In this document: positions 38,754-55,254 of the stretch, piece by piece | How positions within the stretch are numbered: the stretch's first letter is position 1 | Layout: the number at the start of each line of letters is the position of its first letter | Assembly: GCA_041687695.1 (NCBI GenBank) | Contig: JAWLBL010000008.1 | Location: 32,074-96,073, forward strand | Source of the DNA: Myxococcota bacterium | GTDB lineage: Bacteria > Myxococcota_A > UBA9042 > PHBI01 > JAWLBL01 | Reading direction: 5' to 3' | Length of the DNA: 64,000 nucleotides | Translations under genes and position numbers: made by a program | Notes under the pieces: generated by a model | Told to the model about the DNA's origin: nothing | Databases searched by the model: none | Seen by the model: the letters and a program-made list of their open reading frames with translations, nothing else

Positions 38754-39527
38754 TCAGGTTTCGCCGTCGATGCGGATGGCGATCTGATACACGCGCCGCC
38801 GGCTCACGCCCAGCCTGTCGGCGATCTCCTGGGCCGCCTCCTTCTTGCGGACGCCGCCGCCGAGCAGCGGCAGCAGCGCCTGCGCGATGTCGCGGTCCGA
38901 CACCTCGCCGTCGCTGGCCGCGCGGTGCACCAGCAGCACCGCCTCGCCCTTGAGCCCTTCGGTGATCTGACGGCTCAGCTCGCGCGCCGTGCCGCGGTAC
39001 CAGGACTCGTGACGCTTGGTCAGCTCGCGCGCGACGACCGTCGGCGCGTCCGGCAACGCCTCGGCCACGTCCGCCAGGATGTCGGGCAGATCCCGGGCCG
39101 GACAGAAGAAGACGTGCGTCCCCACGGTCAGCGACGACAACAGGGACACGCGCTCGCCGGGCTTCTTCGGGGCGAAGCCGTGGAAGACGAAGCGGTCGGT
39201 GGGCAGCCCCGCGACCGACAGGGCGGTGGTGACCGCGCTGGCCCCGGGCACCGGCACGACCTCGAACCCCGCGGCCAGCGCCGCGGCGACCAGGCGCTGA
39301 CCCGGATCCGAGATGGCGGGCGTGCCGGCGTCGGTGACCAGGGCCACCGAGCGCCCCTGTCGGAGCAGCTCGACGAGCCCCTCGGTGCTGGCCGCCTCGT
39401 TGTGCGCCTCGTGGCGCAGCAGCGGCGTCTCGATGCCGTACTGCTCGCACAGGACGCGGGTCACCCGCGTGTCCTCGCACGCGATGCGGTCCACCTCACG
39501 GAGGATCCGCACCGCGCGAAAGGTCAT
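38754..39527 (-). CDS. rsmI: 16S rRNA (cytidine1402-2'-O)-methyltransferase RsmI; true start appears to lie upstream of the ORF-track ATG (to about 39590)
   Basis: RsmI family motifs. The conserved N-terminal block …GALYVVATPIGNLED is encoded in-frame immediately upstream (39528..39575) of the first ATG, but no ATG/GTG/TTG precedes it before the TAG stop of the upstream TPR gene at 39590..39592; a G7 homopolymer (plus-strand C7 at 39569..39575) lies in this segment. Confidence 0.8.
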   Translation of the reverse strand: MTFRAVRILREVDRIACEDTRVTRVLCEQYGIETPLLRHEAHNEAASTEGLVELLRQGRSVALVTDAGTPAISDPGQRLVAAALAAGFEVVPVPGASAVTTALSVAGLPTDRFVFHGFAPKKPGERVSLLSSLTVGTHVFFCPARDLPDILADVAEALPDAPTVVARELTKRHESWYRGTARELSRQITEGLKGEAVLLVHRAASDGEVSDRDIAQALLPLLGGGVRKKEAAQEIADRLGVSRRRVYQIAIRIDGET

Positions 39528-39589
39528 GTCCTCGAGGTTCCCGATGGGGGTCGCGACGACGTACAGCGCCCCCCCTGTGACCTGCCCGC

Positions 39590-42500
39590 CTATTCGAACA
39601 TCTCCGAGTACTCGATCTGGATGCCCATGTACTGCCGCAGGCTCAGGTACTGGTCGCTCATCGCGTACATCACCAGATCCTTGAGCTTGTCGGCCTTCTT
39701 GAGCTTGGACGTGCCGGCGACCTCCTCGCGCAGCAGGTGCCCGGCCAGCTCGACGTCGTCACACACGAGCAGCGCCGCGTGGATGGCCGTCAGCTCGACC
39801 TGGCGATGCCACAGGCCGATGTGCGGCACCCGCCCGGACTGCTTCATCTCGGCGATGACCTGCGCGAGCTGCGTGCGGTTCTGCGGCGTGATGTCCTTGT
39901 CGAGCGCGGCGCGCGTCTCCCCGACCTGCTGCGCGATCTGCATCTTCAGCTCGTCGGGCATGTCCGCCTGCAGCTGCAGCTTGTAGCTCGGGTCGATGAG
40001 CGCCTCGGCCGCCATGAACATGATGTCGAGCTGCTCACGCTGGAACAGCGCCGCCATGATGTGCGTGTTGGTCAGGTACATCAGGCGCCGGGCGAGGTGG
40101 AACGCGAGGTCCTTTTCGCCCTTGCCCTGCAGCATGTCCGGCCCGATGGACAGGACCGGCGGCTGCGTGTCGAGGATCTCGATGCCCATGCGGGTCGAGC
40201 TGCGGTAGACCTCGGGCGGCTGCAGCCCGAGGATGCGGCAGACCGAGTTGATGACCGAGCAGATGAGCAGGCCCTCGCTCAGATCGATGCGGTCCTTCTT
40301 CTTGAGCCCGTGCTCCTTGAGCTGCTTGAGCGGCAGGCTCTTGTACAGGGACGCGTAGAGGATCGCGAAGACCTGCCCGAGGTACGGGTCCTCCTGCTGG
40401 CTGGCGACCAGCTGCGACATCGCCGTGGCGTCGACGATGCGGTTGGTCTCGGCCACCGCGGCCGACTGATGGTCGCGGTAGAACCGCTCCTCGTCCGGCT
40501 CGGCCCGGTTGAGCGCCACCAGCAGCCCGGCCATGACCCACGCCTTGTCGTAGGCCTTCATCCGCTTATAGAGCTCGACCAGCTTGTGGTAGCTGTCGAA
40601 GCGGTCCGGGTGCTGCCGGATGAGGTAGCGGTGCTCCTCGACGGCCTTGTCCAGCTGGTCCGGCGTCGACTCGTACAGCCCCGCCAGGATCTCGTGGATG
40701 GCCTCGTCGTCCGGCTTGATCTTCCGCGCCAGCTCGAACGCGCTGATGGCGTAGTCCGTGCGCTTGAGGCGCGAGCGGTAGATCTCGCCCAGGTTGCGGT
40801 AGAGCATGAAGTTCACCGCGCCGTACTTGGGCCAGCTGGCGCCCGCCTTCTGCACGCGCTGCAGCATGCGGCGGTAGTTCTGCTCGAGCGGCTTCCACTC
40901 CTTGGCGTGCGTCAGCAGCTCGTCGATGGCGCGGAACGCCTCGAGCTTCTCGATGTTGTAGTCCAGCGTCAGGTTCAAGTACTTGATGGCCGACTCGCGG
41001 TCACCGACCTCGTCGCGGTAGGTGACGGCCGCCGTGTAGGCCCAGGTGGACTTGCGCCCGGCGTCCTCCTCGATCTCGATGATCTTGTTGATCCACCGGA
41101 TCGCCTCGTCGAAGTTGCGCCGCTCGATGTGCACCTGCACCAGCTGCATCAGCGGCGCCTTCGAGAAGTTCCCGTAGCCGACGGCCTTCTGGTAGGCCTC
41201 GACGGCCTTGTCCGGCTGGCGCAGGTTGTCGCGGAAGATGTCGGCGATCTTCAGCTGGATGTTGAACTTCGCGAGCGGCTCGGACTTGAGCGCCAGCAGC
41301 TGCTGCATGTAGCTGATGGCCCCCGCCCAGTCGCCGTGCGCCTCGAGCACCTCGACGATGCGCTCGATGGCGCCCGCGTTGTTCGGCTGGTGCTGGATGA
41401 CCCGCGACAGGTACGTCTGCGCCACCGAGATGCGGCCCAGCTTCAGCGCGCTCTCGCCGAGGTTCAGGTACAGCAGGACGAAGTCCTCGTCGCTGAGCTC
41501 GGACCCGTAGGTGTCGATGACCTGCTGGTAGTAGCGCAGCGCCTCGGAGTAGTTCTGCTTCTTGAAGTGCAGCCGGGCGAGGCCCCGCAGCGTCTCCTTG
41601 TCGGGGCTCGCGTGCTCCACCGCGGCCGAGTACTCGTCGAGCGCGCGGTCGTCGTCGTAGACGGCCTCGGCGCACTGGCCCAGGCGCTTGTGCACCTGCG
41701 CCAGCCGCTCGCGGTCGCCGCGCGCGTCGAGCTTGTCGACCAGCACGTCGAGCAGCGGCATCGCCTTGGTCCAGTTCCGCGTCGCCATGTAGTGGTCGGC
41801 GAGCGGCCACAGCGTCTCCTCGGACTCCGGGTTGGCCTGGACCGACAGCTCGAGGTGCTCGAGGGCGCGGCCCTCGTCGTGCAGCTTGTCGCGGAACAGC
41901 GACGCCAGCTCGACGTGCACGTCGGCGCGCGCGACGTCGTCCTGCGCGTGCTGCAGCTTGTGCTCGAGGGTCTCGAGCACCAGATCGAAGCGCTCCTCGT
42001 AGCTGTACAGATCGATGAGCGCCTGCACCGGCTGCGGGTGTCCCGGCCACTCGGCCAGCGCCTGCTTGTAGTGCTCGGCCGCCCCGAAGGCGTCGTTCAG
42101 CTCGTCGCGCCGGACCGAGCCCTGCTCGCAGTGCAGCGCGAGCCGCTCCTCGTGGCCCGACTCCACCGCCAGCGTGCGGTCGAGCGTCCCGATGAGCTGC
42201 TCCCACAGCCCCTGCTCGCGGTACAGATCCCGCAGCGCGTCCAGCGCCGGCCGGTGCCCGGGCGCCTCGCTCAGCGCGCGCTCGTAGCTGCCGATGGCGC
42301 TGTCCAGATCGCCGATCTGGTCGCGGTAGACCGCCGCCATCGCCATCAGCGCCTGCGCCCGCTCCTCGGCGGTCTGCGCCACGCCGCGCTTCTTCTCGTA
42401 CAGGTCGACCAGATCGTCCCAGCGCGACGTCTCGGCGAAGATGCGCTCCAAGGCCTCGATGGCCTCGGCGTCGTCCGGCACGATGTACAGGATGCGCTGG

Positions 42501-45500
42501 AAGGCCTCGGCCGCCTGCTCGGCGTCCTTGAACACCTCCTGCTGCAGCAGGGCGATGTTGCGGCACGCCTCGACGCGCTGCTCGTCGTTGGTCGCCGCGC
42601 CGTAGCTGCGCTCGAAGACGTCGACCAGCTTCGCCCAGTCGTTGCGCTCGCCGTAGATGCCCTGCAGCGCCTCGATGGCCACCGCGTTGTTCGGGTCGAC
42701 CGCCAGGACATCCTCGTAGACGCCGATGGCCTCGTCGATCTCGCCCAGGTTGCCTTCGAGGATCTGCGCGACGCGCAGCTTCAGCTCGCTCTCGCGCTGC
42801 GGCTCGACCCGCGAGACCCGCTCGAGGACGTCGATGAGCGCGCGCCAGTCGCCGCGCTCGGTGTGCAGCCGCTCGAGCGCGCCGAGCGCCTCGCGGTTGC
42901 TCTCGTCGACCTCGCAGATGGCCTCGTACGCGCCGACGGCCCGCTCACGGTCGCCGATGTTGTGCTCGAAGACCTCGGCCGCGCTCGACAGCAGGACCAC
43001 CTTCTCCTGGTAGTCCATCGTCACGTAGCTGAGGCGCTGCAGCACGTCGACGAGCTTCTCGAACTGCTCCAGATCGATGTTCAGGTCGACCAGCGCGCGC
43101 AGCGCAGGCTCGCTGTCCTCGGCGTGCTCGAGCACGCGCTCGAAGTAGGCCGCGGCGCTCGCCGGGTCCTGCAGCTTGTCGCGCTGCACGTAGGCGGCCT
43201 TCAGCATCGCGTCGAGGGCCGCGTCCGGATCGAGGTGCTCGATGACCCGGTCGTAGATGGCCAGCATCTCGGGCCACAGGCCCGTCAGCTCGGCCAGCCG
43301 CGCCAGCTCGCTCAGGACGTGCGGCTCCTCGGGCGCCTCGTCGATGGCCGACTCGAGGACCATGAACGCCCCGTCGGCCTGGCCGAGCTTGTGCTCGTAG
43401 AGGCCGGCCAGCCGCTGGAGGTTCATCAGGCGATCTTCCATGTCGCCCAGATGCGCGTTGCGGCTCGTCAGCAGCTGCGCCAGATCCGCCCACTGCTCGA
43501 AGGCCTCGTAGATCGCCTCGAGCCGCTGGCTCGCCTCGACGTTGTCGGGGGCGTGCGTCAGGATCTCGACGTAGGTCCCGGCGGCGGCCGCCTGGTCCTG
43601 CAGGCGCTCCTCCTGGATGGACGCCATGTGCAGCCAGGTCTCGATCTGCTGCGCCGCGTCCTCGGTGTAGCCCAGCTTCACCCGGTACAGCTCGACCAGA
43701 TCCGCCCAGCGCTCCTCGGACTCGTACAGGTTCTCGAGGTTCTCGATGGCGTCGGGCGCCCCGGGGGCCAGCTCCAGCACCGCCCGCCACGCGTCGATGC
43801 CCGCGGGCCGGTCGCCCAGCGGCTCGGTCCGCAGCTCGGCCAGCTCGCGCCACAGCGCGACCTGCGCCTCGACGTCGTAGTGGCCGCTCTCGAGCCGCGC
43901 CTCGATGCACCCGGCCAGCGCCTCGTGCGCGTAGTTGTCGCGGTAGATGACGTGCAGCGCCTCGAGGGTCTCGGCGTCGAACGCGTCCTCGGCCCGCGCC
44001 TTCTCCCAGTACATCTGCGCCTGCAGCCCGTCCTCGAGCTGCTGCTGCCAGGTGCGGCCGATGCGCTTGAACAGATCCAGCCGCCGCGCGGCGTCGCCCT
44101 GGCCCATCGCCAGCTCGCGCTCGTACGCCTCGACCAGCCCGTTCCAGTCCTCCTGGCCCTCGCGCAGCCGCTGCAGCTGCTGGACGGCCTCGAAGCTCTG
44201 CGGCGTGACCGCGAGCACGTCCTCCCACAGGTTGATGGCGTCCTCGACCTTGCCGAGGCACACCTCGGCGATCTCGGCCATGTCCGCCATGTAGCCGGCG
44301 CGCTCGGCGTCGTCGCCCGTCGTCTCCGACAGCTGCTGGAGGATCTCGAACAGGGCGGGCCAGTTCTCGTCCTCGTGGTACATCGTGCGCAGCGCCTGCA
44401 GCGCCTCGCCGTGCGTGTCGTTGATGTCGAGCACGCGCTTCCAGGCGTCGATGGCGTCCTCGCGGCGCCCCAGGCGGTCGCGGTACAGCTCGGCGAGCCG
44501 CACCAGCAGCTTCATGCGCTCGTCGTCGAACTCGGCGACGTCGGCCTCGCGGGCCAGCACGCCCTCGAGATCCTCCCAGCGCTCGGCGGCGACGTAGATG
44601 CGGTCCAGCGCCTGCAGCGCCGGGAAGTTCTCGCCGTCCTGGCCCAGGATGAGCAGGTAGACGCGCTCGGCCTCGGCGATGTCACCCAGGCGATCGCGCG
44701 TGATGGCGGCCGCGCGGCCCCACAGCTCGACCCGGCGCTCGTCGTCCTGCACGGCGTCGGCGCCGTCCATCAGGATGACCTTCACCTCGTCCCAGCGGTC
44801 GGTCTCCTCGGCGAGCGTGCGCAGCTGGACCAGCAGGCCCTCGTCCTCGGGGTCGAGGCGGAAGGCGTGGCCGAACCAGGCGATGGCCTCGGGCTTGCTG
44901 CCCAGGCGCTCGAGGTTCAGCTCGGCCAGCTGCCGCATGATCTGCAGGCGGTCGAGCGGGTCCTCGAGGACCTCGAGCTTGAGCTCGAGCAGCCCGTGCA
45001 GCTCCTCCCAGGCCCCGCGGCCCGTGTAGATGGGCTCCAGGCGCTCGGCGATGTCCAGGCGGTGGACGCCCGCCACGTACAGGCGCTGCAGCTCGGCGAT
45101 CGCGTCCTCGGACTGCTCGTCGAGGTACAGGACCTCCATGTAGGCGTCGAAGGCCCCGTCGGTGTCCTCGAGGCAGGCCTCGCAGACCTGCGCGAGCTTG
45201 AAGAGGAAGCCCATCTTCTCGGCGGGCTCGGTCTGCGTCTCGATCTGCTGGCGCAGCACCTCGACCAGCGGCTCGTACTGGCCCTGGGCCTCGTACAGGG
45301 CGTGCAGCCGCGCCAGGACCTCCTGGTGATCCGGGTAGTCCTCGAAGATCTTCTTGTAGACGTCGGTCGCGCGCGCCGCGTCCTGGACGCGGTCCATCAG
45401 CAGCGCGCCGGTCTTGAGGCGCAGCCGCTGCGCGAGCAGCTCGTCGTCGGTGTCCTCGGCGCCGGCCGCGTACAGCGCGACCAGGGCCTCGATCATCTCG

Positions 45501-48500
45501 TGCTCGTCGGCCAGCCGCTCGAGCTCGGCCACCGTCGTCGGGTGCTGCCGGTCCAGCTCGAAGGCGCGCGCCTGCGCCTCGAAGGCCCGCGTCGCGTCGA
45601 ACAGGCGCTTTTCGGCCAGCTGCGCCATCTGGTGCAGCGTCTCGACCTTGCGGAACGGGTCGTCCGACTGGTGCGCCGCGATGATCTCGTACTGCTGCCA
45701 CAGCGGCTCGAAGGCGTTCATCTCGGCCAGGACCGGGCGCAGCACCTCGAAGGCGGCCTCGCGCTCGTCGCGGCTCTCGATGATGGCCTCGAGCGACGCG
45801 ATGGCGCCCTCGTGGCCGGGCACGCGGCCCAGCAGCTCGCCGTAGGCGGCGATGGCCTGGCGCGGATCGCCCAGGCGCTCGTCGTCCTCGAACAGCTTGG
45901 CGACGCGGAACTGCGCCTCGGCCCAGCCGGCCTCGTCGAGCAGCGCCTGCATCTTCTGCAGGACGTCCAGCAGGTTGAACCAGTCCTCCTGCCGCGTGTA
46001 CAGCCCGTCCAGCTCGTGCAGGGCGCCCAGCTCGGCCGGATCCCACTCGAGGATCATCCGCCAGGTCATGACGGCGTCGTCGAGGCTCTCCTGCTTGCCG
46101 GCCTGCACGTGGCCCATGAGCGACGCGTAGTACTTGCGCGTGTCGAGGTCGGCCGCCCGCTCGATCTTCTGGCGGTATACGCCGATGAGCTGCTCCCAGT
46201 CCTCGACCCGCTCGTACAGCCCCTCGAGGGCCTCGAGGGCCAGATCGCCCGTCGTGTCGAGGTTATGCAGCGTCTCGTAGATCTCGATGGCGCTCTCGGG
46301 CGCGTCGAGCACGGTCGCGCTCAGCTCGCCGGCCTCGGCGTACAGGGCCTGCTTGTCGGCCATGTCGCCGACCATCGGCGCCTTGACCAGCAGCATCTCG
46401 ACCAGCTTGTCCGAGCGCTCGAGCTGGCGGTACAGCGCGACGAGGGCCTCGATGGCCGGCATGTCGCCCGGATCGAGCTCGAGGATGGCGCGCAGGTGCG
46501 CCTCGGCGCCCTCGACGTCGTGCGTCGTGTCGCGGCACAGGCTGGCGATGGTGCGGTGCGTCTCTCGGCGCCGGTAGTCGTCGTCGATGTCGTCGACCAG
46601 CCCCTTGAGCGACAGCACCAGCTCGCCGTGGTTGCCCAGCACGTCGGCGAGGCGCAGCAGGTGCGACAGCGTCCCCTCGCTGGCCGGATCGAGCGCGGCG
46701 GCCGCCAGGTAGTGCTCGAAGGCGGCGTCGGGGCGCTCGCCCATCGCCTCGTACAGATCGGCGATCTTGTAGCGCCAGTCGACCTTCTCGAAGACGTCGT
46801 CCGAGGCGGCCTCGCGGACCGTGTAGACGTCGATGAGCTTCACCCAGTCGCCGACGCGGTCGTAGTAGGGCTGCAGGATGGGCGCGATGGCCGGGGCGTG
46901 CTCGGGCGCCTCGAACAGGCGCTCCAGGGCCTCGACCGTGCCCATGTGCTCGGGCTCGAGGGTCAGGTTCTCGGCGTAGAGCGAGATGGCCGTCGCCACG
47001 TCCTCGAGCACGGTCTCGTGCAGGCTGGCGAGGCGCGTCTGGTAGACCACGTGCCGCGGCACGTCGCCGCGGACCAGGTTGATGGCGTCCTCGAGGATCT
47101 GCGCCAGCTCGGTCCACTGCTCGGTCGCCGTGTACAGCTCGTCGAGCCGCAGCAGGGCGTCCATGTTGCCGGGGACCAGGTCCAGCGCCTCGCGCGCCGC
47201 GACCACGGCCTCGTCGTGCTTGCCAAGCCCGTCGCGCAGCAGATCGCTGGTCCGGAACAGGTACTGCAGCTTCTGCTCGACGTCCTGGCTCAGCTCGATC
47301 TTGCGGCGGTAGATGTCGAGCAGATCCTCGGAGCGGTCGAGCGCCGCGTAGATGCCCTCGAGCGCGTCGATGGCCTCCTTGTGCTCGGGCTCCTCGTCGA
47401 GGACCTTGTGGTAGAACTGCCGCGCGTGCTCGAGGTCCTGCTCGCGGCGGTGGTAGGCGCGCGCCACCTCGAGCTTGATCGCCAGGCGCGCCAGCGGGTC
47501 GCCCGCCTCCTCGGCGTGCTCGGCGTACAGCGCGATGAGGGCCGGCCAGCGCTCGAGCTGCGCGGTCAGGCGCTGGAACTCGCCGCGCACGTCGGCGCGG
47601 TGCGGCTCGTGGGCGAACCAGCGGCCGTAGGTGCGCCAGGCGAGATCCAGGTCGTCCAGCGAGCTCTTGTACAGATCGGCCAGGCGCTCGAGCAGCGAGA
47701 CCTGCTCGTAGACGTCCTCGTCGGCCGCCGCGGCCAGCAGCTGGATCTCGAAGACCTCGGCCAGGCGCGCCCACTCGGCGCGGTCGCGGTAGACCGGCTC
47801 GAGGATGCGGGTGATGCGCAGGCGCTCGTCCTCGTCGGCGAGCAGCTCTTCCAGGCGCGCGACCGACTCGAGGTGCTGCGCGTCGTGACGCAGCGCCGCC
47901 TCGTAGTGATCGACCGCGACGCGCACGCCCTCGGCGTCGGGCTGCACGCCGTAGGCCAGCATGCCCAGCTCGCACTCGAGGTCGGCCAGGACCACGGCGT
48001 GCGCGCCCTGGGCGGCCAGGATGTCGCGCTTGCGCTCGAGGACCTCGCGCAGCGGCGCCCACCGCTGCTGCTCGAGCTGGATGGCGATGAGCGCGTCGTG
48101 GACCCGCGTCTCGTCCGGGAAGTCGTCCAGCATCTCCCGGTAGATGGCCTCGGCCTCCTCGGCCTGCCCCAGCGCCTCGCGCCAGACCGCCGCCAGCTGG
48201 AACAGCGTCTCCTTGCGCTCGTCGCCGCCCTGCGCGATGCGCAGCTGCTTGTCGTAGACGACGATCAGCTGGTCCCACGCGCCCAGGTCCCGGTACAGCC
48301 CCTCGAGCGCGGCCAGCGCGGCCCGGTTGCCGTCGTCGAGCTCGACGACGCGGTTGAAGAAGGTCAGCGCCGTCTCGGCGAGGCCCACGTGGTCGCGGTA
48401 GACGTGGCCGATCTCCAGCAGGACGCCGACCTTGTGGCCCTCGTCCTCGATGAGGTCGACCGTCTCCTGCAGGACCATCACGTAGCTGTCCCAGTTGCCC

Positions 48501-50410
48501 GACGCCTCGGCGAGGCGGCGCAGCTCGGGGTGCAGCGACACGGCGTTCGGCGACTCCTGGACCGCCTGCACGTAGGCGAAGAAGGCCGAGTCGACGTCCG
48601 AGAGGTGCTGCTCCTGGACCTCGGCCAGCGCGAGCAGGAGCTGCTGGCGCTCGGCGCGGTCCTCGGTCGCCTCGAGCACGATGTCGTAGACGTTGGGCAG
48701 CTCGGCCCACGACCCGACCTCGCGGTAGATCGGCACCATCATGCGCGCGGCGCCCGCGTGGCGCGGCTCGATCTCGAGCACGGACTCGAGGTTCTTGACG
48801 GCGCGGCGCGTGTCGCCCAGCTCGTCTTGCCACACCGCCGCCGCCTTGAAGAGCAGCGTCGTCGTCTCGGCCGGATCCTCGAGGCTCTTGGCCTGCGACT
48901 CGAGCGTGCGGACCCAGTCCTGCGCCGAGGCGTAGGTCCGGAAGAACCACTCGAGGTTGTCCCAGTCGCGCTCGGCCGTGTACTTCTTCTTGAGTTCGGC
49001 CTGCGCCTTGCGGTGCTCGGCGTCGAGCTCGAGCACGCGGCGCCAGACCTCGGCGGCGCGCGCGTCGTCCTCGAGGCGCGACGAGTAGACCTGGCCCAGC
49101 TTCTCGAGCAGCGCCACCTTGTCGGGGGCGAAGTCGCTCAGCTCGGCGCGGCGGTCGAGGATGCGGGCGAGGTCCTCGAAGCTCTTCTCGCGCTCGTAGA
49201 GCGTCTCGAGCTCACCCAGGGCCTCGGCGTGGTCGGGGTCGATGGTGAGGACCCGCTCCCACAGCGCGATGGGCGTCTGCGGCTTGCGGATGCGCTCGGA
49301 GGCCAGCTTGGCCAGCTTGATGTAGGCCGCGTCGCGATCGGCGCCCTCGGGCAGCAGGCCGACCTCGCGCTCGGCGACGACGATGTAGCTGTCCCAGTCG
49401 TGCCGGCTCTCGTAGATCTCTTTGAGGACGTCGATGCCCTTGCGGTTGGTCGGATCGATCTCGAGGATGGCCTCGTAGCTCTTGATGGCCTCGCTCGAGT
49501 TGTTGAACTTGTCGAGCATGATGGTGGCGACGCGCTCGTGCAGCGCGATCACCTGCGCCGTTTCGGCCTCGTGCTCGATCTTCTGCTTGAGCACCTTGAC
49601 CAGATCCGGCCACCGCTTCATCTCGTCGTACTCGGCGGCGAGCGCGTCGAGCGCCTGCGTGTTGCCGGGCTCGAGCTCGAGGATCGCCTGCCAGGACCCG
49701 ACCACCTTCGACGCCGCGTTGAGGTGCGTCTTGAAGATGTCGATCATCTCGAGGTGCAGCGCGATGGCCTCGCTCACCTGATCCGCGCCGAGGCGGCCCA
49801 GGTTGTTCTTGAGCAGATCCACCATCGCGTGCCACTTGCCGACCTCGGCGAACAGGCGCCGCAGCGCGCCCTCGGCCTCGAGATCGTTCGGGTCCGCGGT
49901 GTACACGGCCTGCCAGAAGCCGACCGCCTTGTCCGGCTTGCCCCGCTCCTCGGCGAGGCGGGCGAGGACGCGCTTGCACTCGACCGGGTCCTCGATGCCG
50001 CCCATCTGCGGCTCGCTCAGGAACTGCTCGAGGCGCCGCCAGTTGTCCTGCTCGACGTAGAAGTCGATGTAGAACTCGCGCAGCAGCGACGGATCGCTGG
50101 GCGCGCTCTTCATCTTGCGGAACATCATCTCGGCCTTCTGGGCCGAGTCGAACGCCTTCCACAGCAGCAGGCCGTTCTGGTAGTGCAGGTAGGACGCGAC
50201 GTCGTCGTCCTTGGCCGTGCGCGCCTGCTGCGCCAGGATCTGGAACAGGCGGCTGGCCTCGCCCTCGGGCGCCCACTCGGGCAGCGAGGCGTAGAGGCTC
50301 CCCAGGGTGCCCTGGTCGTTCTCCGTGACCAGGTGTTTCACCAACGCTTCGAAAGCCTTGTGATCCGTAGGGTTGGCTTTGAAGGCTTCGAAGAGCTCGG
50401 TAGTGCTCAT
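39590..50410 (-). CDS. Giant tetratricopeptide-repeat protein (3606 aa; ~85 degenerate 38-40-aa TPR-like repeats plus a ~400-aa non-repeat C-terminal domain)
   Basis: Uninterrupted 10.8-kb ORF with diverse, protein-like composition and high GC3; recurring pattern A…W.RVLE.DP.N.EAL..L..LY……W..L; the co-located plus-strand 3597-aa ORF is the R/L/V/G-rich antisense shadow. Confidence 0.85.
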   Translation of the reverse strand: MSTTELFEAFKANPTDHKAFEALVKHLVTENDQGTLGSLYASLPEWAPEGEASRLFQILAQQARTAKDDDVASYLHYQNGLLLWKAFDSAQKAEMMFRKMKSAPSDPSLLREFYIDFYVEQDNWRRLEQFLSEPQMGGIEDPVECKRVLARLAEERGKPDKAVGFWQAVYTADPNDLEAEGALRRLFAEVGKWHAMVDLLKNNLGRLGADQVSEAIALHLEMIDIFKTHLNAASKVVGSWQAILELEPGNTQALDALAAEYDEMKRWPDLVKVLKQKIEHEAETAQVIALHERVATIMLDKFNNSSEAIKSYEAILEIDPTNRKGIDVLKEIYESRHDWDSYIVVAEREVGLLPEGADRDAAYIKLAKLASERIRKPQTPIALWERVLTIDPDHAEALGELETLYEREKSFEDLARILDRRAELSDFAPDKVALLEKLGQVYSSRLEDDARAAEVWRRVLELDAEHRKAQAELKKKYTAERDWDNLEWFFRTYASAQDWVRTLESQAKSLEDPAETTTLLFKAAAVWQDELGDTRRAVKNLESVLEIEPRHAGAARMMVPIYREVGSWAELPNVYDIVLEATEDRAERQQLLLALAEVQEQHLSDVDSAFFAYVQAVQESPNAVSLHPELRRLAEASGNWDSYVMVLQETVDLIEDEGHKVGVLLEIGHVYRDHVGLAETALTFFNRVVELDDGNRAALAALEGLYRDLGAWDQLIVVYDKQLRIAQGGDERKETLFQLAAVWREALGQAEEAEAIYREMLDDFPDETRVHDALIAIQLEQQRWAPLREVLERKRDILAAQGAHAVVLADLECELGMLAYGVQPDAEGVRVAVDHYEAALRHDAQHLESVARLEELLADEDERLRITRILEPVYRDRAEWARLAEVFEIQLLAAAADEDVYEQVSLLERLADLYKSSLDDLDLAWRTYGRWFAHEPHRADVRGEFQRLTAQLERWPALIALYAEHAEEAGDPLARLAIKLEVARAYHRREQDLEHARQFYHKVLDEEPEHKEAIDALEGIYAALDRSEDLLDIYRRKIELSQDVEQKLQYLFRTSDLLRDGLGKHDEAVVAAREALDLVPGNMDALLRLDELYTATEQWTELAQILEDAINLVRGDVPRHVVYQTRLASLHETVLEDVATAISLYAENLTLEPEHMGTVEALERLFEAPEHAPAIAPILQPYYDRVGDWVKLIDVYTVREAASDDVFEKVDWRYKIADLYEAMGERPDAAFEHYLAAAALDPASEGTLSHLLRLADVLGNHGELVLSLKGLVDDIDDDYRRRETHRTIASLCRDTTHDVEGAEAHLRAILELDPGDMPAIEALVALYRQLERSDKLVEMLLVKAPMVGDMADKQALYAEAGELSATVLDAPESAIEIYETLHNLDTTGDLALEALEGLYERVEDWEQLIGVYRQKIERAADLDTRKYYASLMGHVQAGKQESLDDAVMTWRMILEWDPAELGALHELDGLYTRQEDWFNLLDVLQKMQALLDEAGWAEAQFRVAKLFEDDERLGDPRQAIAAYGELLGRVPGHEGAIASLEAIIESRDEREAAFEVLRPVLAEMNAFEPLWQQYEIIAAHQSDDPFRKVETLHQMAQLAEKRLFDATRAFEAQARAFELDRQHPTTVAELERLADEHEMIEALVALYAAGAEDTDDELLAQRLRLKTGALLMDRVQDAARATDVYKKIFEDYPDHQEVLARLHALYEAQGQYEPLVEVLRQQIETQTEPAEKMGFLFKLAQVCEACLEDTDGAFDAYMEVLYLDEQSEDAIAELQRLYVAGVHRLDIAERLEPIYTGRGAWEELHGLLELKLEVLEDPLDRLQIMRQLAELNLERLGSKPEAIAWFGHAFRLDPEDEGLLVQLRTLAEETDRWDEVKVILMDGADAVQDDERRVELWGRAAAITRDRLGDIAEAERVYLLILGQDGENFPALQALDRIYVAAERWEDLEGVLAREADVAEFDDERMKLLVRLAELYRDRLGRREDAIDAWKRVLDINDTHGEALQALRTMYHEDENWPALFEILQQLSETTGDDAERAGYMADMAEIAEVCLGKVEDAINLWEDVLAVTPQSFEAVQQLQRLREGQEDWNGLVEAYERELAMGQGDAARRLDLFKRIGRTWQQQLEDGLQAQMYWEKARAEDAFDAETLEALHVIYRDNYAHEALAGCIEARLESGHYDVEAQVALWRELAELRTEPLGDRPAGIDAWRAVLELAPGAPDAIENLENLYESEERWADLVELYRVKLGYTEDAAQQIETWLHMASIQEERLQDQAAAAGTYVEILTHAPDNVEASQRLEAIYEAFEQWADLAQLLTSRNAHLGDMEDRLMNLQRLAGLYEHKLGQADGAFMVLESAIDEAPEEPHVLSELARLAELTGLWPEMLAIYDRVIEHLDPDAALDAMLKAAYVQRDKLQDPASAAAYFERVLEHAEDSEPALRALVDLNIDLEQFEKLVDVLQRLSYVTMDYQEKVVLLSSAAEVFEHNIGDRERAVGAYEAICEVDESNREALGALERLHTERGDWRALIDVLERVSRVEPQRESELKLRVAQILEGNLGEIDEAIGVYEDVLAVDPNNAVAIEALQGIYGERNDWAKLVDVFERSYGAATNDEQRVEACRNIALLQQEVFKDAEQAAEAFQRILYIVPDDAEAIEALERIFAETSRWDDLVDLYEKKRGVAQTAEERAQALMAMAAVYRDQIGDLDSAIGSYERALSEAPGHRPALDALRDLYREQGLWEQLIGTLDRTLAVESGHEERLALHCEQGSVRRDELNDAFGAAEHYKQALAEWPGHPQPVQALIDLYSYEERFDLVLETLEHKLQHAQDDVARADVHVELASLFRDKLHDEGRALEHLELSVQANPESEETLWPLADHYMATRNWTKAMPLLDVLVDKLDARGDRERLAQVHKRLGQCAEAVYDDDRALDEYSAAVEHASPDKETLRGLARLHFKKQNYSEALRYYQQVIDTYGSELSDEDFVLLYLNLGESALKLGRISVAQTYLSRVIQHQPNNAGAIERIVEVLEAHGDWAGAISYMQQLLALKSEPLAKFNIQLKIADIFRDNLRQPDKAVEAYQKAVGYGNFSKAPLMQLVQVHIERRNFDEAIRWINKIIEIEEDAGRKSTWAYTAAVTYRDEVGDRESAIKYLNLTLDYNIEKLEAFRAIDELLTHAKEWKPLEQNYRRMLQRVQKAGASWPKYGAVNFMLYRNLGEIYRSRLKRTDYAISAFELARKIKPDDEAIHEILAGLYESTPDQLDKAVEEHRYLIRQHPDRFDSYHKLVELYKRMKAYDKAWVMAGLLVALNRAEPDEERFYRDHQSAAVAETNRIVDATAMSQLVASQQEDPYLGQVFAILYASLYKSLPLKQLKEHGLKKKDRIDLSEGLLICSVINSVCRILGLQPPEVYRSSTRMGIEILDTQPPVLSIGPDMLQGKGEKDLAFHLARRLMYLTNTHIMAALFQREQLDIMFMAAEALIDPSYKLQLQADMPDELKMQIAQQVGETRAALDKDITPQNRTQLAQVIAEMKQSGRVPHIGLWHRQVELTAIHAALLVCDDVELAGHLLREEVAGTSKLKKADKLKDLVMYAMSDQYLSLRQYMGIQIEYSEMFE

Positions 50411-50512
50411 GTATCCCCTCGACGACCCGCGATGCGACGAACGACCCGAGACTGGTCAGCCCGGAAGGTCGCTAAGTCACTCGGAAAAGCGGCCCTTCCG
50501 GGGGCAGTCCGG

Positions 50513-50540
50513 GTCATAGCACAGCCCTGACGGGATTCCA
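50513..50540 (-). promoter_or_regulatory. Candidate sigma70-like promoter for the giant TPR gene (-35 TTGGAA, -10 TATGAC)
   Basis: Minus strand TTGGAAtcccgtcagggctgtgcTATGAC about 100 nt upstream of the ATG; weak consensus. Confidence 0.25.
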
Positions 50541-50549
50541 ACCGCACCC

Positions 50550-50582
50550 CCGGTTACGACGGCTTGCAAAGGTCGTAACCGG
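50550..50582. other. Perfect 11-bp inverted repeat CCGGTTACGAC-n11-GTCGTAACCGG, hairpin or dimeric operator
   Basis: Read directly; lies ~30 nt 3' of the upstream minus-strand gene stop and ~140 nt 5' of the TPR gene ATG; no U-tract follows on the minus strand. Confidence 0.5.
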
Positions 50583-50613: not shown

Positions 50614-51681
50614 TCAGGGTAGGCCCAGCAGATCCCGCACCGCGTCGTGGAACCAGGGCCGGAAGGCCTTGATCCCGACCTCGCTCCCCGGGCCGCGATC
50701 GACGCGGTTGGTCAGCAGGACCACGACCAGCCGGTGGCGGCGGTCGATCCAGACGCTGGTCCCCGTGAAGCCCAGGTGGCCGATCGCGTCCAGCGGCACG
50801 CGGGTGCCGGCCGAGCTGGCGCCGGGCGAGGGCAGCGTCCAGCCGAGGACCCACGGCGCGTCGTGCGGGCGCGCGGCGGGATCCCAGAAGGCGCGCAAGG
50901 TGGCGCCGAGCGGGTCGCCGGGCGTCTCGGTGCGGCGCTCGAGATCGAGCGCCCAGGCGCCCACGGCCTCGGCCGTCGCGAACAGGCCGGCGTGCCCGGC
51001 GACGCCGCCCAGCGCCCAGGCGTTGAGATCGTTGACCTCGCCGAACAGCCGCCGGCCGCGCCGTGGACACACGCCGGTCGGCGCGTAGCGGGCCGGATCC
51101 GCGGGCGGCGCGACCCCGCCGAAGTGACCGCGAAAGCCCACGCGATCGCGAACCAGCGCGGGCAGCGGGCGGCCCAGGGCGCGCTCGAGGTGCCAGCCGA
51201 GCAGGATGTAACCGAGATCGCTGTAGACGACGCCGCGGGACGGGTCGGCCTGCCGGGCAAGGGCCGAGACGCGGGCCTCGATGACGGACCGCGTCTCGGG
51301 GGCGCCGGGCGTCCAGGCGCCGAACGTGGCGTCGAGGTGGGCGGGCAGGTCGTCGAGGGCGGGCAGGCCGGAGGTGTGGCCCAGCAGCGCGCGCACCGTC
51401 AGGCCGGCCCCGGACGGGTGGGCGCAGGGGGCGTCCAGGTCGAGCGCGCCCTCGCTGGCGAGCTGGGCGACGAGCGTGCCGACGGCGACGGGCTTGGTCA
51501 GCGACGCCAGATCGAACCAGGTCTCCGGGTGGGCGGCCCCGGCGGCGGCCACGGCGCGCGGGGTCCCAGCCTGGGCCACGAAGGCCGAGGCGGCGGGGAA
51601 GGCGCCGTCGGCCACGCCCCGGGCGAGCAGGGCGGCCAGCTCGCGGGACAGGGGCGCGTCGTGCGCGGGCGGCGTCGTCAC
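50614..51681 (-). CDS. Serine hydrolase of the beta-lactamase / penicillin-binding-protein family
   Basis: GTG start overlapping upstream stop (GTGA); SxxK active-site motif FDLASLTKPV; 355 aa. Confidence 0.8.
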   Translation of the reverse strand: MTTPPAHDAPLSRELAALLARGVADGAFPAASAFVAQAGTPRAVAAAGAAHPETWFDLASLTKPVAVGTLVAQLASEGALDLDAPCAHPSGAGLTVRALLGHTSGLPALDDLPAHLDATFGAWTPGAPETRSVIEARVSALARQADPSRGVVYSDLGYILLGWHLERALGRPLPALVRDRVGFRGHFGGVAPPADPARYAPTGVCPRRGRRLFGEVNDLNAWALGGVAGHAGLFATAEAVGAWALDLERRTETPGDPLGATLRAFWDPAARPHDAPWVLGWTLPSPGASSAGTRVPLDAIGHLGFTGTSVWIDRRHRLVVVLLTNRVDRGPGSEVGIKAFRPWFHDAVRDLLGLP

Positions 51682-52655
51682 GCGGGGGCGCCTGCGGGCT
51701 CGAAGGACAGCCGCGCCGGGCCGCCGTCGGCCGGGACCTCGAGCACGCCGCGCAGGTGGCTGCCGCGGCCGAAGGGCAGGGGGGCGTTGGCCGAGTCGTG
51801 GGTCACGGGGGCGCCGGCGGCCACCGGGATGCCCAGGCGGGGCGCGAGGTCGGCGAAGAACGCGTCGATCAGGACGCGCTGGTCGTCCGAGACGGCCGTG
51901 AAGCCGCCCAGGACCAGGCCGGCGGCTTCCTCGAGCCCGCCCGACAGGCGGAGCTGGGTGAAGAGGCGATCGATCTTGTAGACCGGCTCGCCCGTGTCCT
52001 CGAGGACGACGATGCGGCCCCGGAGATCGGCGGCGAAGGGCGTGCCGACCAGCGAGCTGACGACGCAGAGGTTGCCGCCGGCCAGGGCGCCCGTCGCGCG
52101 GCCGGGGGCGAGGGGGCGCAGGCCCTCGAGGGGTGCGACGTGGCCGGCGTGCCAGGCGGCGCGCACGCGGGCGAGGCTGGTCGTGTCCAGGCGCGAGAAC
52201 TGGCTGAGCGGGGGCCCGTGCCAGGCGGGCCAGCCGAGGCGGTCCCAGGCGGCCAGCAGGGCCGTGCCATCGCTGAAGCCCCACAGCGGTGCGGGCGGCG
52301 AGGCGGCGAGGCGTTCGCCCAGCGTCTCGAGGGTGCGCACGGCGCCGTAGCCGCCGCGGACCATCCAGAGGGCGGCGGGTTGCTCGGCGAGCGCGGCGAG
52401 GAGCTCGTCGGCGCGCCGGGCGTCGGAGCCGGCCAGGTAGTCGCCGGTCGCCAGGACGCCGGCGGCGTCGCCCGGCGCGTGCTCGTCGCCGTCCCAGGCG
52501 AGCGGGATGCCCAGGGCCTGCATGGCCGCGAGGCCCTCGTCGAAGGTGACCCGCTTGATCGGGCCGCTGGGCGCGACGAGGCGGGCGAGGGCGCGCGCGG
52601 CCGGCGCGTCCTCCCGCGCGTCATCGGGCGGCGGCGTGGACGGCGGCGCCGCCAA
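51678..52655 (-). CDS. LD-carboxypeptidase (peptidase S66, LdcA-like)
   Basis: S66-like layout (ARLVAPSGPI… N-terminal region, GGYGAVR, C-terminal catalytic region); start assigned to in-frame TTG, uncertain. Confidence 0.7.
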   Translation of the reverse strand: MAAPPSTPPPDDAREDAPAARALARLVAPSGPIKRVTFDEGLAAMQALGIPLAWDGDEHAPGDAAGVLATGDYLAGSDARRADELLAALAEQPAALWMVRGGYGAVRTLETLGERLAASPPAPLWGFSDGTALLAAWDRLGWPAWHGPPLSQFSRLDTTSLARVRAAWHAGHVAPLEGLRPLAPGRATGALAGGNLCVVSSLVGTPFAADLRGRIVVLEDTGEPVYKIDRLFTQLRLSGGLEEAAGLVLGGFTAVSDDQRVLIDAFFADLAPRLGIPVAAGAPVTHDSANAPLPFGRGSHLRGVLEVPADGGPARLSFEPAGAPA

Positions 52656-52657
52656 GG

Positions 52658-54013
52658 TCAGCGGCCCCCGGAGACGAGGCGCAGGCCGGGCTTGCGGGCG
52701 CGTTCGGTGGCCTGGGCGGCCTCGGCGGCCTGCTTGGGCTGCGACTCCTTGAGGAAGTCGGCGCCGTCGCCCATGCGCGACAGGCCGACGTCCATGCCGT
52801 AGGCGGCGAAGATCTTGCGCAGCGTCTCGTAGTGCTTCTCGAGCGAGGCGCGCACCGACTCGTAGCCGTGCTGGGCGGCCTCCTGCCGGCGCCAGAAGGC
52901 GACCGGGTTCATCGCGAAGAAGCGCGAGTCGGTCTCGGTCGGCTCGATGAGGATGACGTCGCCGCGGAAGCTGTCGTCGAGGCGCAGCTTCTCGATGCCC
53001 AGGCGCAGTCGACTGTGCAGCAGCGTGCGGAAGGCCTGGTTGATGATGGCCCACATGCCCAGATCCGCGATGGACCGCCGGTCGCTGGAGGTCAGGCGGT
53101 GGCGGTAGTTCACGAACGGGCGGAAGGGGTTGTAGCAGACGACGAGATCGGCGCCGTGGCGCACCGCCGTCGAGATGTTGGCGGTCTTGCGGACGGCGGC
53201 GTCGAGGTAGTCCTGCTCGCGGCCGGCCGGGCCCACGCGGGCCGGCTTGAAGAAGCCCGGGATGGCGGTGGAGGCCTGCACGGCCTCGCTGATGGTGACC
53301 GAGGTGTCCTCGTCGTGGCCGAAGACGACGCCCTGGGCCGTGTTGAGGTTGGTCGCGCCGATGTAGAGGCTCTTGCCCGTCTGCAGCTTGAGCTGGCGGA
53401 AGTTGTTGGGCAGCTCGTTGCGCTCGAGGTTGTGGCGGATGTAGCGCTCGATGCGCGCGTTGTCGAACAGGCCCGAGGGCAGGTAGCCGCCGCGCTGGCC
53501 CCAGGGGCGCTCGAGCAGCTCCGCGACGAAGGGCTCGAGCAGGGCCTCGGCCAGCTCGAGCGAGGGCTCGTCCAGAAAGCGCCGGGCGCGGCGGCGGAGA
53601 TCCCGCTGGTGGCGGGGCAGCAGCTGCAGGCACTTGTAGCCCAGGCGCGGGCCGTAGGTGACGAGATCGTGGGCCAGGTTGGTCGGCCGGGTGACGAACT
53701 CGCGCCAGTTGGGCAGGTAGAAGTCGACCGGCTTGAACATGGTCAGGCGCCCGGTCGAGCCGCGGATGGCGGCGACGAGCTCCTCGGCGGCGAAGCCGGC
53801 CGACAGGGGCGCGGCGAGGAAGGCCCCCGCCGAGATGCCCATGTACATGTCGAAGTCGGTGACCTTGAACTGCGAGAAGAACCGGTCGAGGGCGAGCAGG
53901 CCGCCCACCTTGAACGCGCCGCCCGAGATGGCGCCGCCGGCGAGCACGAGGGCGCGGCGGGCGTTGGGTCGCGGGCGCGACAGGTCCGACTTCTGGACGA
54001 TGGTGATGCCCAA
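52658..54013 (-). CDS. Patatin-like phospholipase
   Basis: TTG start with GGAGG 8 nt upstream; oxyanion GGAISGG and nucleophile elbow GISAG; DGG/DAA-type catalytic Asp region downstream. Confidence 0.8.
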   Translation of the reverse strand: MGITIVQKSDLSRPRPNARRALVLAGGAISGGAFKVGGLLALDRFFSQFKVTDFDMYMGISAGAFLAAPLSAGFAAEELVAAIRGSTGRLTMFKPVDFYLPNWREFVTRPTNLAHDLVTYGPRLGYKCLQLLPRHQRDLRRRARRFLDEPSLELAEALLEPFVAELLERPWGQRGGYLPSGLFDNARIERYIRHNLERNELPNNFRQLKLQTGKSLYIGATNLNTAQGVVFGHDEDTSVTISEAVQASTAIPGFFKPARVGPAGREQDYLDAAVRKTANISTAVRHGADLVVCYNPFRPFVNYRHRLTSSDRRSIADLGMWAIINQAFRTLLHSRLRLGIEKLRLDDSFRGDVILIEPTETDSRFFAMNPVAFWRRQEAAQHGYESVRASLEKHYETLRKIFAAYGMDVGLSRMGDGADFLKESQPKQAAEAAQATERARKPGLRLVSGGR

Positions 54014-54150
54014 GCAGGCCTCCGTGACGCGGTCAGGCGCCTGATAGTCTAGGGGCCCTCGCGGCCGCGCGGCAAGAAGCCCGCCGCGCGACCGGCGTCG
54101 TGGCCCAGGGGTACAGCCGCGCCGAGCGCGTCCGCATTCCCGGCGGGCGC

Positions 54151-54786
54151 TCAGCGTCGCTTGGCTTCGCGCAGCGGCCGATCGGGGTCGAGGTCCAGCA
54201 GGTGACAGGCGATGTCCGTCACGAGGGCCAGGATCTCGACGCGCGCCGCCTCGACGGAGGCCGCGCCGAGCATGATCCGGTTGTCCTCGGGGCGGTTGGT
54301 CACGAAGCGCGTGACGAGGTGCACCAGCGCGACCACGGCCCGCCGGACGGCCGGGACCGGCCGATCGATGGTGCGCGCGATGAGGTGCGCCAGCATGTCG
54401 GTGGTCGGGCCGACGCGACGCTCGCGCAGCTTCCAGTCGAGGCCGCCGCCCTCCATGATGCCGCGGATGAGGACGCGCACCGCGTCCCGGTGCACCTCGG
54501 CGAAGGCGAAGATCGCCTCGACGATCACCGCGGGCGGGGCGCCGAGGTCGAGCTCGCGGGCGAGGCGCGACACGTCGCCGTAGATCCGGTCGACGACCGC
54601 GTCGTACAGGCCCTGCTTGTCGCCGAAGTGATAGCTCAGCGCGGCTGGCGTGACGCCGGCGCGTGTGGCAATCTGATGCAGCGAGCCCCCGCTGTAGCCG
54701 GCGTCCGCGAAGACGGTCGTCGCCGCCTCCAGCGCCGCCTCGCGCGTCGCCTCGCGCGTCCTGCCCTTGATGCGTGCCATGGTCAC
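54151..54786 (-). CDS. TetR/AcrR-family transcriptional regulator
   Basis: N-terminal helix-turn-helix AALEAATTVFADAGYSGGSLHQIATRAGVTPAALSYHFGDK. Confidence 0.85.
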   Translation of the reverse strand: MTMARIKGRTREATREAALEAATTVFADAGYSGGSLHQIATRAGVTPAALSYHFGDKQGLYDAVVDRIYGDVSRLARELDLGAPPAVIVEAIFAFAEVHRDAVRVLIRGIMEGGGLDWKLRERRVGPTTDMLAHLIARTIDRPVPAVRRAVVALVHLVTRFVTNRPEDNRIMLGAASVEAARVEILALVTDIACHLLDLDPDRPLREAKRR

Positions 54787-55254
54787 CCCCCTCGGTGGCG
54801 CTGGACCCGATCAATGAATTAAACGCTATGTTAATTTTGCGCAAGGCCACGGAGCGCTTTCACAGACCTGATCGGTCAGCGGTGGCGGTGACCCCTTTCC
54901 GAGTCCGCTGACCGAATCCGTGGCCCGGCTCCGTGGCTGTGTCGGCGCACCGATTCCGTCCGCCGTAGCCGCGCTACGACCGCCGCCGCCGCTCCGACCG
55001 CCAGCGATTCAGCCTGGAGGGAGCGGCCGTTCCGAACCACACCTTCGTTCTGCAGGGGGAGCCATCCTTTCGTGTCAGTGGATGTGGCCCCACCCCTGCG
55101 ACCCTCCCGCGTCCTCTGACGCGATGGATGGCTTCCTCAGCGACGAGGCCTGTGCCCAGCCCAGCTCAGCGCCCGACCGAGCGCGCAGCGAGCTGCGCGA
55201 CCCACGAGCACGAGCAAGCTCGTGCAGTCCGACCGAAGCGTCCCGATGATGACC

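Follow-up and report, generated by a model that had tools for sequence, protein, structure and literature searches.

Results

The locus and the giant gene

The 64,000-nt stretch of a Myxococcota bacterium contig analysed here, called the window below, carries on its minus strand one giant gene, the subject of this report. The gene encodes a tetratricopeptide repeat (TPR) protein of 3,606 amino acids and 411 kDa, which very probably belongs to the family of the myxobacterial protein GltI (AgmK), and it is followed directly downstream by rsmI, the gene of a 16S rRNA methyltransferase (Table 1). The earlier note on this DNA had described a single uninterrupted open reading frame (ORF) consisting almost entirely of TPRs, and in both respects it proved right. 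The ORF is real and truly coding, and it is the minus strand that codes. The GC contents of the first, second and third codon positions of this frame are 0.735, 0.361 and 0.98, respectively, and the amino acid composition of the product is balanced. Such codon-position values are the classic pattern of a true gene in a 70%-GC genome. A Shine-Dalgarno sequence precedes the ATG, and the N-terminus is kept in orthologues (MSTTELFEAFKANPTDHKAFEAL versus MSATDLLEAFEAKPSDHRAFEAL), the first 30 residues being conserved across other assemblies.

The protein is very acidic (pI 4.67, net charge about -300, 696 acidic versus 396 basic residues). Neither a signal peptide nor a membrane-spanning segment could be observed in it: the N-terminus (MSTTELFEAFKANP) is not signal-like, and the highest Kyte-Doolittle hydropathy over 19 residues, 1.44, falls within the C-terminal domain. 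Thus the giant protein is cytoplasmic.

The ORF of 3,597 codons on the plus strand was considered as a gene and rejected as an antisense shadow, since its GC maximum lies at codon position 1 (0.977) and the composition of its product is skewed, being rich in L, V, R, A and G with K, Y, W, M, S and T almost absent. Because the third codon positions of the giant gene have a GC content of 0.98, the antisense frame is free of stop codons, and a naive gene caller might take this shadow ORF for a gene.

Table 1. Coordinates of the giant gene, its parts and its immediate surroundings in the window
Feature	Position	Strand	Description
Giant gene	39590..50410	-	3,606 codons and TAG stop, ATG start, uninterrupted ORF
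N-terminal cap	49967..50410	-	148 residues; without Pfam match; conserved within the 3,600-aa subfamily
Double-TPR array	40541..49966	-	Residues 149-3290; about 43 units of 72 aa
C-terminal domain	39593..40540	-	Residues 3291-3606, 316 aa; predicted M48-like zincin fold without zinc site
RRLMYLTNTH	40061..40090	-	Residues 3441-3450; predicted helix after three-stranded sheet, position of zincin HExxHxxxxH
WHRQVELTAIHAALLVCDD	39755..39811	-	Residues 3534-3552; best-conserved motif of the C-terminal domain
rsmI	38754..39593	-	16S rRNA C1402 2'-O-methyltransferase; Pfam TP_methylase and RsmI_C; TIGR00096
Ribosome-binding site GAGGGG	50415..50420	-	Shine-Dalgarno, 4 nt 5' of the giant-gene ATG
Antisense shadow ORF	39737..50530	+	3,597 aa; not a gene
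Perfect inverted repeat	50550..50582	.	11-bp arms, 11-nt loop: CCGGTTACGAC-N11-GTCGTAACCGG

The repeat array

Pfam recognised only TPR-type families in the giant protein, many of them far above their cut-offs (TPR_7 with 160.6 bits, TPR_19 with 146, TPR_6 with 128.6, TPR_2 with 124.7, and others), and NCBIfam returned for the full protein generic TPR families only, every one under its cut-off. The BLOSUM autocorrelation of the protein has sharp peaks at lags of 72, 144 and 216 residues (z = 23.7 against shuffled sequences at lag 72), and it stays at background at lags of 34-40. The period is 72 aa, or 216 nt. A self-bootstrapped hidden Markov model placed 45 copies, tiling residues 149-3249, with the unit consensus LAELYRDRLGDADRAIEAYEAALELDPEHAEALEALERLYEERERWEELVEVLER and an about 17-aa linker. 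The unit length rises to 80-92 aa in a few cases, and one 171-aa stretch could not be divided into units. The unit is a double TPR of four helices, and the array comprises about 43 units, that is roughly 86 hairpins. The count of about 85 repeats given in the earlier note is thus close to the number of hairpins, but the period of 38-40 residues assigned to them has to be replaced by the 72-residue one.

In the DNA itself, copies of the repeat share 60-83% identity over no more than 100 nt, and no long tandem arrays were found (the Tandem Repeats Finder maximum was 28 nt), so that a collapse of repeats in the assembly is not credible.

The giant protein can be aligned end to end, as a single high-scoring segment pair (HSP) of 3,604-3,654 columns, with P0002, P0030, P0024, P0078, P0040 and the giant of locus L002, at 33-52% identity. 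In an alignment of 15 orthologues, with identities down to 25%, at most 68 residues are deleted and at most 47 inserted relative to the 3,606 positions, and conservation is uniform along the array (0.41-0.56 per unit). These proteins form a subfamily of 3,568-3,612 aa, a length kept within about 1% across deep divergence in at least 14 independent assemblies. Since orthologous units are collinear and share 28-53% identity, as against a mean of 24.5% between units inside the giant protein, the units are individually orthologous and fixed in number. Since every unit is kept in the orthologues and the length is held, the alignments show the array as a fixed-length structure with position-specific surfaces and not as a freely expanding repeat.

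Relationship to GltI

Within the Agl-Glt focal-adhesion machinery, GltI (AgmK, MXAN_4863) is regarded as a cytoplasmic scaffold with a length of roughly 1100 Å (PMC11761067, PMC4508894). Gliding depends on this protein, which is recruited to focal adhesions and has been proposed to link AglZ/MglA to the machinery (PMC4508894); multiple binding sites for the FHA domain of GltG are predicted in it (PMC11761067). The gene is confined to Myxococcales, and the orthologues Adeh_3311, A2cp1_3455 and STAU_5650, from Anaeromyxobacter and Stigmatella, have 4,074, 4,104 and 4,089 aa, respectively (PMC3169522 and its supplement).

The connection of the window protein to GltI runs through P0095, a 4,185-aa member of the family whose gene stands at the place of gltI in a gltDEFGHIJ cluster (locus L086). 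The upstream neighbours of P0095 exceed the NCBIfam equivalog cut-offs for GltE (292 bits, cut-off 225), CglF/GltF (117.7, cut-off 90), GltG (657.9, cut-off 650) and CglE/GltH (129.8, cut-off 70), and the gene downstream of it encodes a Zn-ribbon/GYF protein whose best match is GltJ (344.9 bits). Residues 537-3600 of the window protein are collinear with residues 1048-4177 of P0095 in a single HSP (26% identity, 662 bits). The same holds for residues 123-3597 and residues 646-4119 of P0073 (single HSP, 29% identity, 1,314 bits), and residues 846-3599 align in a single HSP with residues 1361-4107 of the Lujinxingia protein P0113 (30% identity). The profile of the C-terminal domain matches the extreme C-termini of P0095, P0073, P0090 and P0113 with E values of 1e-27 to 1e-32. 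These comparisons make it highly probable that the window protein belongs to the GltI family.

Among the sampled loci the family is specific to Myxococcota, Bradymonadia included, and 3,300-4,200 aa is the norm; the giant size is therefore normal for this family. Its members carry public names such as 'hypothetical', 'TPR repeat protein' and even 'golgin'. The earlier suggestion of a large assembly platform of unknown function fits a GltI/AgmK homologue as far as the platform is concerned, but the protein is not an orphan, as it stands in a large conserved family.

The C-terminal domain

A non-repeat C-terminal domain had been noticed before; it exists, but its length is 316 residues and not about 400. 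No Pfam or NCBIfam model describes it, and a Pfam scan of the window domain, Peptidase_M48 (PF01435) included, found no match even at E = 1. A k-mer protein search with the window domain gave a single partial match, a search with the corresponding part of P0095 gave one fragment, and a search with a 48-sequence profile of the domain gave mostly short fragments without informative names. The distribution of the domain was obtained from an exhaustive HMMER search with a two-sequence profile against 1.84 billion cluster representatives, which matched 1,644 proteins at E <= 1e-3, of which 877 also passed E <= 1e-10. With a single exception, the 139 full-coverage matches end no more than 10 residues from the C-terminus, mostly exactly there. 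Proteins of 3,226-4,185 aa account for 36 of the top 150 matches, and the carriers fall into length classes of 3,568-3,635 aa, 3,796-4,185 aa and about 1,500-2,250 aa, besides standalone proteins of 450-520 aa encoded on long contigs. P0158, P0169, P0173 and P0185, from contigs between 41 kb and 1.1 Mb in length, are seemingly complete proteins of this last kind, with a few TPRs and the C-terminal domain. Because of the standalone proteins the domain has to be regarded as a mobile module and not as the end of the giants only. It goes together with TPR arrays throughout the family, of which it is the signature domain.

The AlphaFold2 model of the domain computed from an alignment of 48 sequences with at most 45% mutual identity reached a predicted local distance difference test (pLDDT) score of 96.1 and a predicted template modelling score of 0.93, and the model from a two-sequence alignment (pLDDT 37) was unusable. 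The best structural match was BepA, itself a fusion of an M48 peptidase and TPRs. Foldseek against the PDB gave nothing at E <= 0.001, the top matches being BlaR1 and ZMPSTE24. In the model a mixed sheet is followed by a helix at the active-site position and by a Glu-bearing helix, as in zincins. The segment RRLMYLTNTH would occupy the place of the zinc-binding motif, and the family consensus at this site is [K/R]-x-L-x-Y-x-x-P-x-H. Lys or Arg stands at the position of the first His in 122 of the 139 relatives, and HExxH was found anywhere in the domain neither in these (0 of 139) nor in the window protein. The best-conserved motif of the domain is W-x3-V-E-L-T-A-N-[H/R]-A-G-L-L-x-C-x-D (WHRQVELTAIHAALLVCDD in the window protein). 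Its residue E3539, on the downstream helix, is acidic (E/D) in 132 of the 139 relatives and would stand in the place of the third zinc ligand of the gluzincins (their ExxAD-type motif). A local hhalign alignment, itself not significant, placed R/R/Y/H of the domain on H136/E137/H140/H145 of BepA, so that the equivalence of these residues with the zincin active site is a putative one. When 48 relatives were scanned with Pfam, one matched Peptidase_M48 (E = 7e-4) and another Peptidase_M56 (0.039).

According to the model, the domain is an M48-type zincin-fold pseudo-peptidase in which HExxH is replaced by R-R-L-M-Y, and judged from the lost motif it is almost certainly not catalytic. A Lys/Arg-Glu pair would fill the former metal site. 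Most likely the dead domain keeps the substrate groove of the zincins as a peptide-docking module.

The junction with rsmI

Translated from position 39593, the window rsmI scores 222 bits against TIGR00096 (cut-off 167.9). The earlier note had placed rsmI next to the giant gene with abutting stop and start codons. The neighbourhood is correct and deeply conserved, but there is no canonical abutting start: no ATG, GTG or TTG lies in frame upstream of the conserved N-terminus of RsmI. The sole ATG (39527) is internal to the gene as judged from the TIGR00096 profile, which begins at residue 10 of the ATA-started protein, upstream of this ATG. Two start candidates are left, an ATA (39593-39591) that overlaps the TAG of the giant gene (39592-39590) as A-TAG, and a CTG (39566-39564) 24 nt downstream of it. 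Locus L002, whose giant is 49% identical to that of the window, has the same A-TAG junction (10945-10990), with ATA as the sole candidate, and the peptide after ATA is common to both, I-G-G-x4-G-x-LYVVATPIGN. The other orthologous junctions are GTGA, TAATG or gaps of 2-7 nt, with the exception of L001, where a long intergenic spacer is found.

A frameshift at the G7 run that would rescue a canonical rsmI start was also considered. It was rejected, since no ATG, GTG or TTG is gained by it and the junction of L002 has no G run. The start of rsmI is thus probably the ATA that overlaps the TAG, and because of the conserved overlapping or adjoining junctions the translation of rsmI may be coupled to the termination of the giant ORF by termination-reinitiation.

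Gene neighbourhood and the upstream region

Downstream of the giant gene lie rsmI and an RNase T gene, and upstream a beta-lactamase-family gene and a patatin gene. Loci with giants of the 3,600-aa type have rsmI immediately downstream in seven of eight cases (the window, L001, L002, L087, L088, L089 and L090). The larger, GltI-type giants offer a view of an older order. In L094, from the cultured Lujinxingia litoralis (Bradymonadia; QHKO01000003.1, 1-22298), genes for a GltE-like, a CglF-like and a GltG-like protein, an AgmX/PglI-tail protein and a 309-aa TPR protein are followed in a row by a 4,109-aa giant and rsmI. In L081 (1-21209) a glt-like cluster, again with GltE-like, CglF-like and GltG-like genes and one for a TPR protein, lies directly upstream of an about 4,100-aa giant, which is then followed by rsmI. 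These orders are most simply explained by an ancestor in which the glt cluster was followed by gltI and rsmI, and the window lineage would have kept only the gltI-rsmI pair at this place; on account of that order the window gene would be the positional counterpart of gltI.

Housekeeping genes are neighbours elsewhere as well, rsmA/ksgA and tsaD in L089 and rlmH and rsfS in L081. In L085 (18599-21517) the place of rsmI downstream of a GltI-type giant is taken by holB and a PSP1 (ricT-like) gene. In Bacillus, holB, ricT and rsmI are neighbours, so the giant gene may lie inside an old housekeeping gene neighbourhood.

Genes of a patatin-like phospholipase and a beta-lactamase-family (PBP4B-like) protein stand upstream of the giant both in the window (50614-54850, minus strand) and in L090 (4210-7661), a synteny kept although the L090 giant is only 33% identical to that of the window. 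Among the housekeeping genes of the window a 233-aa protein with a tail-tube domain like that of phage T4 gp19 (PF06841, E = 7.6e-31) is encoded at 25979-26680 on the minus strand; the ORFs scanned in the window included no further genes of a contractile tail or an injection system. When the window was searched by tblastn with the Glt proteins of L081, L085 and L086, only generic TPR and FHA matches were obtained. One such FHA match, to the GltG FHA domain with E down to 6e-7, lies at about 9415-9740 on the minus strand, where the gene calls are ambiguous; this region was rejected as a GltG orthologue on length and context.

The giant gene had also been credited with its own regulatory region containing an 11-bp inverted repeat. 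The repeat is real, perfect and unique in the window (0 expected by chance), but a regulatory role is not borne out: as a conserved operator it was rejected, since it is absent from all nine orthologue upstream regions examined. It lies 31 nt past the TGA (50614-50616) of the upstream beta-lactamase-family gene and 140 nt before the giant ATG. Given this position just past the stop of the upstream gene and its absence in the orthologues, a terminator-type hairpin of the upstream gene is the more economical and probable reading. A scan of the giant upstream region for consensus promoters and terminators found nothing, and the fold of the leader RNA is not exceptional (z = -1.9).

Discussion

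Taken together, the product of the giant gene is likely a GltI/AgmK-family solenoid of 411 kDa, cytoplasmic and very acidic, built of an N-terminal cap, about 43 double-TPR units and a dead M48-type domain. By homology to M. xanthus GltI, the scaffold could be roughly 90-100 nm long and would offer docking sites to those domains of envelope-spanning motor complexes of the Agl-Glt type that lie in the cytoplasm (the FHA domain of GltG and the GYF domain of GltJ), and would link the docked complexes to AglZ/MglA. The pseudo-peptidase head would bind peptides in the retained zincin groove. The giant gene and rsmI would be co-transcribed, the translation of rsmI depending on termination of the giant ORF. 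Whether the protein serves gliding in its own host is about evenly balanced.

Several observations weigh against this interpretation. The family assignment is drawn from P0095 and its neighbours and not from the MXAN_4863 sequence itself, and the 3,600-aa subfamily lacks the about 520 additional N-terminal residues of the GltI-type proteins. A neighbour-joining tree of the C-terminal domain, weakly resolved and long-branched, separates the 3,600-aa group from the 3,800-4,185-aa group, the shorter forms being nested in both. The window gene is not placed between gltH and gltJ in a gltDEFGHIJ cluster. No glt, agl or mgl genes were found in the 64 kb of the window, which is a housekeeping region (valS, rpoD, a tlyA-like methyltransferase and others), and glt neighbours are found in none of the eight loci of the 3,600-aa type. 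As for the C-terminal domain, its relationship to peptidases is drawn from the predicted fold and not from sequence. Profile-profile alignments of the domain to BepA, LoiP and HtpX of E. coli did not reach significance (E = 0.16, 0.88), a PDB sequence search with the domain profile gave chance matches only (Rap-1b at E = 0.7), and the docking role of the groove is something we infer.

The absence of glt neighbours and the coupling to rsmI in seven of eight loci, the housekeeping neighbourhoods of the window, L089 and L081, the separate length group (3,568-3,612 aa) in which the N-terminal 520 residues are missing, and the shorter relatives in which the same units and domain are fused to a protein kinase could also be accounted for if the 3,600-aa, rsmI-coupled proteins were an ancient, non-gliding sister subfamily of GltI acting as a fixed-length cytoplasmic scaffold or ruler. 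Ribosome biogenesis or another housekeeping function, in view of the obligatory rsmI coupling, and Ser/Thr-kinase/FHA signalling, in view of the kinase-fused relatives, would be the candidate roles. However, rsmI also follows the GltI-type gene next to a glt-like cluster in L081 and L094, so that inherited gene order explains the coupling equally well. The glt/agl genes of M. xanthus are themselves spread over three loci (PMC3169522), no genome with both the 3,600-aa and the GltI types has been shown, and no link between RsmI and a TPR scaffold is known. We hold this alternative to be possible but doubtful. A bolder form of it is more doubtful again: a branch outside gliding in which a ruler or platform of about 43 units carries a dead-M48 docking head and RsmI is slaved to the completion of the 10.8-kb ORF by the overlap of stop and start, which in the window involves the non-canonical ATA. 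The lengths of the 3,600-aa proteins are held within ±0.6% across lineages that share only 25-35% identity, which would speak for such a cytoplasmic ruler or platform.

An active, TPR-guided metalloprotease like BepA, in which the array would bring substrates to the C-terminal domain to be cleaved, is very improbable. BepA is the best structural match of the domain, and two relatives match Peptidase_M48 and Peptidase_M56, respectively; yet the zinc-binding His positions are occupied by K/R and Y, the position of the catalytic Glu is variable, HExxH is absent from the window protein and from every one of the 139 relatives, and the window domain gave no Pfam peptidase match. That the ORF is an assembly artefact of collapsed or chimeric repeats or a chance GC-rich frame can practically be dismissed, since, although the opposite-strand ORF shows that long frames can stay open without coding in GC-rich DNA, the coding signature is strong and limited to the minus strand, identity between the DNA repeats does not exceed 83% and is limited to stretches of 100 nt or less, and proteins of 3,568-3,612 aa that can be aligned over their whole length with few indels come from at least 14 independent assemblies.

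Comparison with known systems

The preferred reading, membership in the GltI family, can be set against the systems already described. Like GltI, the window protein is of giant size, lies in the cytosol and consists of TPRs up to a helical domain at its C-terminus (PMC11761067). Both types consist of collinear 72-aa units, 46-52 in the GltI type and 43-47 in the window group; GltI-type proteins such as P0095 carry the same C-terminal pseudo-zincin domain, and some GltI-type loci also have rsmI downstream. Unlike the GltI type, the window protein is shorter by about 520 residues at the N-terminus, shares 26-30% identity with it and falls into a separate, length-invariant subfamily; unlike gltI, its gene stands outside gltDEFGHIJ, with no glt or agl gene within 64 kb.

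The gluzincins BepA (YfgC), HtpX, LoiP, Ste24/ZMPSTE24, BlaR1 and the minigluzincins have HExxH where the window domain has RRLMY. The domain differs from the M48/M56 gluzincins also in having no significant sequence or profile similarity to them and in being cytoplasmic, whereas they are periplasmic or membrane-bound. Compared with BepA, the window protein has its domains in the opposite order and a TPR part about 25 times longer.

The closest architecture of another kind is that of the Ser/Thr-kinase-TPR-pseudozincin proteins of Polyangiaceae and Labilithrix (about 1,770-2,250 aa), which have 13-16 of the same units and the same C-terminal domain. An N-terminal Pkinase domain stands in them in place of the cap and of roughly 30 of the units, and they have no rsmI or glt neighbours. 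Such proteins are encoded in Labilithrix luteola DSM 27648 (L070, 5357-10909), in L005, L036 and L051 and in about 70 other Polyangiaceae loci, P0045 being a further example; no characterised member was found. The kinase fusion is intriguing beside the predicted binding of GltI to the phosphopeptide-binding FHA domain of GltG.

An M48-like pseudo-peptidase tail, a 72-residue unit of fixed number and a conserved coupling to rsmI were not found in the literature searched. GltI is the least understood component of the myxobacterial focal-adhesion motor. The predicted zincin-fold pseudo-peptidase tail would apply to the whole family and is a plausible peptide-docking head, and the individually orthologous units of fixed number argue for a ruler-like array whose binding sites are position-specific. 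The giant gene appears to be ancestrally tied to rsmI, often via overlapping stop and start codons. The C-terminal domain, finally, would provide a specific annotation marker by which the GltI family can be separated from the 'TPR repeat', 'hypothetical' and 'golgin' labels.

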